Positions 38,801 to 41,800 of a stretch of DNA of 48,763 nucleotides are shown here, piece after piece. The position numbers are program-made. Origin of the DNA: Escherichia phage 2B8; sequence record NC_049952.1. One strand, 5' to 3'. Position 1 is the stretch's first letter, and the number at the start of each line of letters is the position of its first letter.

Positions 38801-41800
38801 GGGGTGGATCTATGAAAAACATCGCCGCACAGATGGTTAACTTTGACCGTGAGCAGATGCGTCGGATCGCCAACAACATGCCGGAACAGTACGACGAAAA
38901 GCCGCAGGTACAGCAGGTAGCGCAGATCATCAACGGTGTGTTCAGCCAGTTACTGGCAACTTTCCCGGCGAGCCTGGCTAACCGTGACCAGAACGAACTG
39001 AACGAAATCCGCCGCCAGTGGGTGCTGGCTTTCCGGGAAAACGGGATCACCACAATGGAACAGGTTAACGCAGGAATGCGCGTAGCCCGTCGGCAGAATC
39101 GACCATTTCTGCCATCACCCGGGCAGTTTGTTGCATGGTGCCGGGAAGAAGCATCCGTTATCGCCGGACTGCCAAACGTCAGCGAGCTGGTTGATATGGT
39201 TTACGAGTATTGCCGGAAGCGAGGCCTGTATCCGGATGCGGAGTCTTATCCGTGGAAATCAAACGCGCACTACTGGCTGGTTACCAACCTGTATCAGAAC
39301 ATGCGGGCCAATGCGCTTACTGATGCGGAATTACGCCGTAAGGCCGCAGATGAGCTTGTCCATATGACTGCGAGAATTAACCGTGGTGAGGCGATCCCTG
39401 AACCAGTAAAACAACTTCCTGTCATGGGCGGTAGACCTCTAAATCGTGTTCAGGCGCTGGCGAAGATCGCAGAAATTAAAGCTAAGTTCGGACTGAAAGG
39501 AGCAAGTGTATGACGGGCAAAGAGGCAATTATTCATTACCTGGGGACGCATAATAGCTTCTGTGCGCCGGACGTTGCCGCGTTAACAGGCGCAACAGTAA
39601 CCAGCATAAATCAGGCCGCGGCTAAAATGGCACGGGCAGGTCTTCTGGTTATCGAAGGTAAGGTCTGGCGAACGGTGTATTACCGGTTTGCTACCAAGGA
39701 AGAACGGGAAGGAAAGATGAGCACGAACCTGATTTTTAAGGAGTGTCGCCAGAGTGCCGCGATGAAACGGGTATTGGCGGTATATGGAGTTAAAAGATGA
39801 CCATCTACATCACTGAGCTAATGACAGGCCTGCTGGTAATCGCAGGCCTTTTTATTTGGGGGAGAGGGAAGTCATGAAAAAACTAACCTTTGAAATTCGA
39901 TCTCCAGCACATCAGCAAAACGCTATTCACGCAGTACAGCAAATCCTTCCAGACCCAACCAAACCAATCGTAGTAACCATTCAGGAACGCAACCGCAGCT
40001 TAGACCAAAACAGGAAGCTATGGGCCTGCTTAGGTGACGTCTCTCGTCAGGTTGAATGGCATGGTCGCTGGCTGGATGCAGAAAGCTGGAAGTGTGTGTT
40101 TACCGCAGCATTAAAGCAGCAGGATGTTGTTCCTAACCTTGCCGGGAATGGCTTTGTGGTAATAGGCCAGTCAACCAGCAGGATGCGTGTAAGCGAATTT
40201 GCGGAGCTATTAGAGCTTATACAGGCATTCGGTACAGAGCGTGGCGTTAAGTGGTCAGACGAAGCGCGACCGGCTCTCGAATGGAAAGCGCGATGGGGAG
40301 ACAGGGCGGCATGAGACGACAGCGACGAAGTTTCACCGACATCATCTGCGAAAACTGCAAATACCTTCCAACGAAACGCTCCAGAAATAAACGCAAGCCA
40401 ATCCCAAAAGAATCTGACGTAAAAACCTTCAACTACACGGCTCACCTGTGGGATATCCGGTGGCTAAGACATTGTGCGAGGAAAACAAGGTGATTGACCA
40501 AAATCGAAGTTACGAACAAGAAAGCGTCGAGCGAGCTTTAACGTGCGCTAACTGCGGTCAGAAGCTGCATGTGCTGGAAGTTCACGTGTGTGAGCACTGC
40601 TGCGCAGAGCTGATGAGCGATTCGAATAGCTCGATGCACGAGGAAGAAGATGATGGCTAAACCAGCGCGAAGACGATGTAAAAACGATGAATGTCGGGAA
40701 TGGTTTCACCCTGCATTCGCTAATCAGTGGTGGTGCTCTCCAGAGTGTGGAACCAAGATAGCACTCGAACGACGAAGCAAAGAACGCGAAAAAGCGGAAA
40801 AGGCAGAAAAGGCAGCAGAGAAGAAACGACGACGAGAGGAGCAGAAACAGAAAGATAAACTTAAGATTCAAAAACTCGCCTTAAAGCCCCGCAGTTACTG
40901 GATTAAACAAGCCCAACAAGCCGTAAACGCCTTCATCAGAGAAAGAGACCGCGACTTACCATGTATCTCGTGCGGAACGCTCACGTCTGCTCAGTGGGAT
41001 GCCGGACATTACCGGACAACTGCTGCGGCACCTCAACTCCGATTTGATGAACGCAATATTCACAAGCAATGCGTGGTGTGCAACCAGCACAAAAGCGGAA
41101 ATCTCGTTCCGTATCGCGTCGAACTGATTAGCCGCATCGGGCAGGAAGCAGTAGACGAAATCGAATCAAACCATAACCGCCATCGCTGGACTATCGAAGA
41201 GTGCAGGACCATCAAGGCGGAGTATCAACAGAAACTTAAAAAACTGCGAAACAGCAGAAGTGAGGCTGCATGAATATCTACGAAAGAATTGATGGCAGCA
41301 AATACCGAAATATTTGGGTAGTTAGCGATCTGCACGGATGCTACACGAACCTGATGAAAAAACTGGAGACGATAGGATTCGACACCAAAAAAGACCTGCT
41401 TATCTCGGTTGGCGATTTGGTCGATCGCGGTACAGAGAACGTCGAATGCCTGGAATTAATCACATTCCCCTGGTTCAGAGCTGTACGTGGAAACCATGAG
41501 CAAATGATGATTGATGGCTTATCAGAGCGCGGAAACGTCAATCACTGGATGCTTAATGGCGGTGGCTGGTTCTTTAATCTCGATTACGACAAAGAGACTC
41601 TGGCTAAAGTTCTTGCCCATAAAGCAGAAGAACTTCCGTTAATCATCGAACTGGTGAGCAAAGATAAAAAATATGTCATTTGCCACGCCGATTATCCTTG
41701 TAACGAATACGAATTTGGAAAGCCAGTTGATCCTCAGCAGGTAATCTGGAACCGCGAACGAATCGGCAACTCACAAGACGGGATCGTGAAAGAAATCAAA

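Follow-up and report, generated by a model that had tools for sequence, protein, structure and literature searches.

A reduced nin region without ninC, ninD and ninH in the lambdoid Escherichia phage 2B8

The DNA examined here, which we call the window, is the whole of record NC_049952.1 from Escherichia phage 2B8, 48,763 bp long, and it is a complete lambdoid phage genome. Our subject is its nin region, the genes that lie between ren and the late antiterminator gene Q. The chain in the window reads ren, a 26-codon open reading frame (ORF) with the terminator tR2, ninB, ninE, ninF, ninG, ninI and Q. Alignment to phage lambda confirms that this region is reduced; the genes that are missing are ninC, ninD and ninH, while ninF is present. 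The parts of the locus, given as positions in the window, are these:

37916-38815: O
38812-39513: P
39510..39800, plus strand: ren; Ren is 97.9% identical in amino acids to that of lambda over 96 residues, and the stop overlaps the next start (ATGA)
39797..39877, plus strand: 26-codon ORF resembling 'Orf26' of lambda and 434, translated as MTIYITELMTGLLVIAGLFIWGRGKS and a stop; a homologue is annotated in 434 and 21
39826..39859, plus strand: tR2, intrinsic terminator with an 8-bp GC-rich stem and an 8-nt loop; hairpin AGGCCTGCTGGTAATCGCAGGCCT (39826-39849) and tail TTTTTATTTGG
39874..40314, plus strand: ninB (orf), recombination mediator, 146 amino acids; 98.6% amino acid identity to lambda NinB, PF05772 with E 1.1e-54
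40311..40317, plus strand: first joint, ninB stop and ninE start, GGGCGGCATGAGAC, in the place of lambda 41085-42096 (ninC and ninD, 1012 bp) by the blastn breakpoints
40311..40493, plus strand: ninE (lambda 'Nin 60'), 60 amino acids; PF05322 with E 7.5e-42 across the whole profile (positions 1-58 of 58), and 90.7% identity over residues 7-60 of the lambda protein
40490..40660, plus strand: ninF, 56 amino acids, with the GTG start that lambda also has; 98.2% identical to the lambda protein along all 56 residues, PF05810 with E 1.6e-12
40650..41273, plus strand: ninG (rap), branched-DNA endonuclease, 207 amino acids; 96.1% identity to lambda NinG, PF05766 with E 2.9e-89
40803..40811, plus strand: 9-nt in-frame tandem duplication GCAGAAAAG in ninG, seen by comparison with lambda (40794-40820 with its surroundings)
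41270..41278, plus strand: second joint, ninG stop and ninI start, GCATGAATATC, in the place of lambda 43044-43232 (ninH) by the blastn breakpoints
41270..41935, plus strand: ninI, Ser/Thr protein phosphatase (calcineurin-like phosphoesterase), 221 amino acids; 92.3% identity to lambda NinI, PF00149 (Metallophos) with E 1.2e-16
41932..42555, plus strand: Q, lambda-type late antiterminator and last gene of the pR operon; 97.6% identity to lambda Q, PF03589 (Antiterm) with E 8.3e-56

The genes were assigned by comparing the lambda Nin proteins with the entire window by tblastn, and by checking the ORFs of the window in a Pfam profile search, where PF05772, PF05322, PF05810, PF05766 and PF00149 all scored above their curated cut-offs. 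All ORFs of the chain are intact and in phase, with start and stop codons checked, and the Nin products are 146, 60, 56, 207 and 221 amino acids long, against 146, 290, 57, 60, 56, 204, 68 and 221 in lambda. Neighbouring genes overlap by ATGA at P/ren, ren/orf26, orf26/ninB, ninB/ninE, ninG/ninI and ninI/Q, and by GTGA at ninE/ninF, and ninF and ninG share 11 nt. Linkage by ATGA is typical of nin regions (PMC8022706). The features that we looked for as marks of a lambdoid ninR were all found: a position between O, P and ren on one side and Q on the other, the Nin families and the phosphatase, overlapping stops and starts, and tR2 between ren and ninB.

Alignment to lambda shows where the region is shorter. 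With window 39401-42100 as the blastn query, NC_001416 gave three colinear blocks: window 39401-40314 corresponds to lambda 40171-41084 (98.2% identity; the end of P, ren, tR2 and ninB), window 40318-41273 to lambda 42097-43043 (96.7%, with one 9-nt gap; ninE, ninF and ninG), and window 41279-42098 to lambda 43233-44052 (95.5%; ninI and the start of Q). Colinearity is accordingly broken twice, at window 40314/40318 (lambda 41084/42097) and at window 41273/41279 (lambda 43043/43233). The first break leaves the 1012 bp of lambda 41085-42096 without a match, which is all of ninC (41081-41953) and ninD (41950-42123) except its last 27 nt, and these survive because in lambda they also serve as the beginning of ninE. 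The second leaves the 189 bp of lambda 43044-43232, the body of ninH (43040-43246). From the end of the tR2 stem to the start of Q there are 2083 nt in the window and 3267 nt in lambda. The missing genes have not moved elsewhere: tblastn of NinC, NinD and NinH over the whole window gave nothing better than E 0.14, the sole notable match being eight residues of NinD at 40318-40341, the part that overlaps ninE in lambda, and when the two segments found only in lambda were compared with the whole window by blastn, at a word size of 7 nt, the matches did not rise above chance level (best E 0.086). The lambda-type full set with ninC, ninD and ninH is thus absent from the window.

A preliminary description of this DNA, made from the sequence alone, had already placed the two breaks correctly, and was right that the region is shorter than that of lambda, that there is no room for further genes at the ninB stop and between ninG and ninI (where we find ATGA overlaps), that ninC and ninH are absent, and that tR2 is retained, although this element lies outside the span 40311-41273 that it had marked. 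Its gene names were shifted by one. The ORF at 40311-40493, which it took for ninD, encodes NinE by a match to the full PF05322 profile, and the one at 40490-40660, which it took for ninE, encodes a full-length NinF, so that ninF, said to be absent, is there and ninD is missing instead. The alignment to lambda 40644..43889, which it had itself proposed as a check, confirms the absence of ninC and ninH and recovers the ninF that it had taken for another gene.

The sequences at the two joints are not those of lambda. At the first, the ninB stop overlaps the ATG of ninE in GGGCGGCATGAGACGACAGCGACG, which is the empty ninB/ninE slot of the phage 21 type; the joint reads AAAGCGCGATGGGGAGACAGGGCGGCATGAGACGACAGCGACGAAGTTTCACC, and phage 21 is the same over 61 nt bar one base away from the joint itself. 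Lambda starts ninE inside ninD, with no ATGA, and its start reads GTGGCGAGAC where the window has ATGAGACGAC. At the second joint, ninG and ninI overlap in GAGGCTGCATGAATATCTACGAAAG, which is the empty ninG/ninI slot of the phage 434 type and is identical to 434 over 61 nt. NinI here begins MNIYER (ATGAATATCTAC), as against MRYYEK (ATGCGCTATTAC) in lambda, where the start overlaps ninH.

Comparison with named phages shows where the same pieces occur. Phage 21 (OL657228 / AJ237660) has the order ren, Orf26 with tR2, ninB, ninE, ninF and ninG, with the same joint between ninB and ninE, and runs alongside window 39401-41273 without a break at 97.4% identity; it differs after ninG, with a ninH fragment and a Q of its own in place of the ninI and lambda-type Q of the window. 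Its two small ORFs are annotated as NinE and NinF, the latter with a longer start, and its ninG is without the 9-nt duplication. Phage 434 (OL657226) has ninE, ninF, ninG and ninI contiguous with window 40303-42002 at 96.8% identity and no ninH, but between ninB and ninE it holds a 528-nt DNA adenine methyltransferase (dam) gene, and in place of the intact lambda-type Q of the window it carries a truncated lambda-Q fragment together with lpxR and a Q82-like antiterminator. Lambda (NC_001416 40644-43889) shares the position of the region between ren/tR2 and Q, an identical tR2, the same type of ATGA/GTGA linkage, and NinB, NinE, NinF, NinG and NinI proteins that are 91-99% identical; it is unlike the window in its extra ninC, ninD and ninH (1012 and 189 bp) and in the GTG start of ninE within ninD.

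The complete block is found in bacterial genomes as well. From ninB to ninI it aligns without interruption, at 98.6% identity, to many prophages of E. coli O55:H7/O157:H7, and these (e.g. NZ_CP039837 3758662-3760752), like phage phi458 (OP434518), which is contiguous with window 38500-41931, have the same order ninB, ninE, ninF, ninG and ninI, the duplication in ninG included. The names given by the Prokaryotic Genome Annotation Pipeline (PGAP) to the block in the O55:H7 prophage are NinB, NinE family protein, NinF, NinG and Ser/Thr phosphatase, with 'NinE family protein' for the gene in the position of our ninE. Beyond the block this prophage resembles 434 in having a truncated Q and lpxR, and not the full lambda-type Q of the window. 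Both 434 (position 5448-5537 of the locus) and the O55:H7 prophage (3573-3644) keep only an N-terminal fragment of a lambda-type Q, with lpxR on the opposite strand, and since Q is intact in the window a mosaic breakpoint lies, in both of them, a short way into the 5' end of Q.

Each of the two joints is also widespread on its own. The direct ninB/ninE joint is present in CUS-3 and HK022 as well, and the direct ninG/ninI joint in the Stx2 phages 1717 and 2851, in JLK-2012 and in others. We counted joints in IMG/VR by exact-pattern scans, which give numbers of contigs and not of independent events. On the left-hand side, 114 contigs have the direct ninB/ninE joint, at least 120 have ninB followed by dam, and 33 have the ninB/ninC joint of lambda, which makes the lambda arrangement the rarest of the three states counted. 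On the right-hand side ninG is joined directly to ninI in 87 contigs and to ninH in at least 120. Among the fetched loci that hold both joints, the direct ninB/ninE joint goes with ninG/ninI in 9 and with ninG/ninH in 20, the ninB/dam joint with ninG/ninI in 31 and with ninG/ninH in 20, and the ninB/ninC joint with ninG/ninH in 13 and with ninG/ninI in 2. All six combinations of left and right were found, and therefore the two slots assort independently, which is classic lambdoid mosaicism.

The bases around the joints carry some information about how the slots may be exchanged. A boundary motif, (G)GCNGCATGA, recurs at the ends of ninB, ninC, dam, ninG and ninI and codes for Ala-Ala-stop overlapping Met. 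In 434 the ninB end before dam is GGGCTGCATGA, and dam ends in GGGCGGCATGA followed by GGCGAC, a dam-end boundary that is the same as in the window. For the IMG/VR contigs, again not independent events, we tallied the dinucleotide that precedes GGGC in the ninB tail and the synonymous base that precedes GCATGA. The direct ninB/ninE joints have the dinucleotide CA in 114 of 114 cases and the base G in 103 of 114, the ninB/ninC joints have CA together with T in 32 of 33, the ninB/dam joints have TC together with T in 133 of 145, and of the commonest dam/ninE joints 82 of 108 have G. After these bases the direct joint continues as ATGAG[A/G]CGACA, as at the dam/ninE joint. It looks as if a lambda-type ninB tail had been fused, inside GGGC or immediately ahead of it, to what usually stands upstream of ninE. 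The pattern fits an exchange within the short conserved boundary, and it could also reflect a mere linkage of G to ninE; as a comparison of bases it is compatible with the loss as well as with the gain of a cassette, and gives no direction. Ideas of recombination linkers have been proposed before for lambdoid phages, and we tentatively suggest, as the less probable view, that (G)GCNGCATGA acts as such a linker for the precise excision and insertion of genes with translational coupling kept, the direct joint being a chimera of a lambda-type CA tail and a dam-type G tail. Even if correct, the suggestion would do no more than illustrate such ideas and would not count as a discovery.

The explanation that we prefer, and hold to be very probable on these comparisons, is that the region is an ordinary lambdoid ninR allele with two empty accessory slots, inherited as ready-made mosaic modules and not the result of fresh deletions. 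The slot between ninB and ninE holds ninC and ninD in lambda, a Dam-type methyltransferase gene in 434 and nothing in the window, and the slot between ninG and ninI holds ninH in lambda and is empty in the window. The empty-slot joints are pre-existing alleles, the left one shared with phage 21 and the right one with phage 434, that assort freely among lambdoid phages, and 2B8 would most likely have gained them through homologous recombination among such phages or prophages. It is known that accessory-gene slots of lambdoid phages are mosaic, and earlier work has described how genes of the nin region are shuffled, gained and lost (PMC4118853). The preliminary description had spoken of natural deletion variation of the nin module; the natural variation is borne out by the same arrangement in many independent phages and prophages, but a simple deletion from lambda is not, because the joint sequences are not those of lambda. 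Simple deletions that arose twice, independently, in an ancestor like lambda, one of ninC with or without ninD and one of ninH, would explain why colinearity with lambda picks up directly on both sides of each gap at 95-98% identity. We nevertheless regard them as very unlikely, as they would not be expected to leave the ninE start ATGAGACGAC for GTGGCGAGAC and the NinI start ATGAATATCTAC for ATGCGCTATTAC, nor joints identical to the widespread alleles of 21 and 434, and the base 5' of GCATGA, mostly G at the direct joints and at the commonest dam/ninE joints, is T in all but one of the ninB/ninC joints. A laboratory deletion of the nin5 kind, or an artefact in which the assembly collapsed this stretch, has nothing but the shorter length in its favour and is hardly credible. 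The nin5 deletion takes away lambda from about 40.5 to 43.3 kb, removing tR2 and ninB to ninH and giving growth independent of N, and we rejected a deletion of this type since tR2, ninB, ninE, ninF, ninG and ninI are all present in the window; an artefact was rejected as the ORFs are complete, in phase and overlapping, and the arrangement recurs in many independent complete genomes.

A more serious alternative, although still an unlikely one, concerns the left slot only. At some time in the lineage of this allele it could have been emptied by the precise loss of a 434-type dam cassette, through recombination at the repeat GGGC(T/G)GCATGA, with which ninB and dam both end. The 434 dam gene is indeed flanked by such copies, GGGCTGCATGA at the ninB end and GGGCGGCATGA at its own, and the direct joint unites a CA ninB tail with the G of the dam end and then runs on as the dam/ninE joint does. 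The CA dinucleotide is, however, that of the phages with ninC and not the TC of the phages with dam, and therefore the joint is not explained by a single parent with dam; the observed bases would equally fit an insertion of dam into an empty slot, or a G linked to the upstream region of ninE, and the contigs counted are not independent events. No result in our data contradicts the reading of ready-made alleles. It is compatible both with a loss of the cassettes and with their never having been present, and it takes N dependence at tR2, translational coupling and dispensability from lambda by analogy. To see whether the missing DNA would include the Rho-dependent terminators tR3 and tR4 of lambda, we looked for their positions in a full-text literature search and in the lambda records, and did not find them.

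The duplication in ninG sits in a linker rich in Lys, Glu and Ala, where 12 residues replace KAEKAAEKK and lengthen the protein from 204 to 207 amino acids, and it is the single blastn gap against lambda, 434 and 21, all three of which are without it. The O55:H7/O157:H7 prophages have it too, with one-piece matches over 2091 of 2091 nt. Among the IMG/VR loci with both direct joints the spacing between these is that of the long form (961 nt) in one, that of the short form (952 nt) in six, and much larger in two.

The terminator tR2 is identical in the window to lambda 40596-40619 and its tail in a terminator scan, with a predicted fold of -16.9 kcal/mol, and a terminator is annotated at the matching place in the records of 434 and 21. 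The hairpin lies inside the 26-codon ORF (39797-39877), which is coupled by ATGA to ren upstream and to ninB downstream, and translation of this ORF through the hairpin could modulate the efficiency of termination. A simple terminator scan found no other convincing plus-strand terminator in the nin stretch of either the window or lambda, and the records J02459 and NC_001416 have no terminator features annotated in that stretch.

Another joint lies in the late region beyond Q. The lambda-type Q and a lambda-like pR' promoter (-35 TTGACT, Q-binding-element (QBE)-like TTTTGAATAACTTTGGGG, -10 GAAACT) are joined at about 42643-42690 to 434-type late DNA (window 42556-42800). No record in the phage collection spans this joint, but more than 550 E. 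coli genomes have it with 100% identity, and it is therefore ordinary. The 434 terminator annotated just downstream of the late promoter has a homologue in the window that is mutated (AACCTGCCGCCGAGTAGTTTTTAT) and does not fold, while the 434 version folds with -13.3 kcal/mol and a z of -2.9. The first clear intrinsic terminator on the plus strand after pR' is found at 43981-43999 with T8 (region to 44007), downstream of an ORF for a 252-amino-acid membrane protein (42793-43551) and of a TciB-like ORF (43637-43795). As it lies downstream of both, these two ORFs might be transcribed from pR' without Q.

The nearest relatives of the window are phage 434 and lambda, with about 96-97% DNA identity for each shared module; 434 is the top phage match, at 96-97% identity and 65-88% coverage, and the top E. 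coli prophage match covers 95% of the right 14.8 kb in seven pieces at 98.1% identity. Because no end-to-end match was found among the searched phage and E. coli prophage collections, the window is, as far as these comparisons reach, a new combination of known modules. The record is opened 7 nt inside the cohesive end, its first base being lambda position 8; it starts with GACCTCGCGGG and ends with GGTTACGGGGCGGT (cos, window 1-5 and 48757-48763), so that the 12-nt cohesive end reads GGGCGGTGACCT, where that of lambda is GGGCGGCGACCT, an apparent change of C to T at overhang position 7 that may be a true variant or an error of assembly or consensus at the point where the circle was closed. Among the matches, MW057783.1, named 'Campylobacter phage CJLB-4' and 48,361 bp long, is essentially phage lambda, with the match pattern of NC_001416 and the lambda nin gene names, and it is probably a laboratory contamination or a mislabelled public record.

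The nin genes of 2B8 would be delayed-early genes of the pR operon, in which RNA polymerase coming from pR would need N to pass tR2, as in lambda, and ribosomes would pass from gene to gene by way of the ATGA and GTGA overlaps, by the same analogy. Q, the last gene, would be reached about 1.2 kb sooner than in lambda. By its predicted products the phage keeps the Orf (NinB) mediator, the Rap (NinG) branch endonuclease, the NinI phosphatase and the small NinE and NinF. Of the proteins that it does without, NinC resembles phosphoadenosine phosphosulphate (PAPS) reductases and NinD is small and rich in cysteine, and NinH is a Fis-like protein that binds and bends DNA (PMC7166090). Lambda requires none of these three to form plaques. 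In lambda, plaques are formed without each of ninB, ninC, ninF, ninG and ninI once Q is supplied, and phages deleted for all nin genes still plaque (PMC10695390).

The value of the analysis lies in a corrected annotation, in which ninE and ninF are present and ninC, ninD and ninH are absent. It describes a phage without the Fis-like NinH and the PAPS-reductase-like NinC, yet with Orf, Rap and tR2, and it gives a small quantitative picture of the free assortment of two accessory slots among lambdoid phages.

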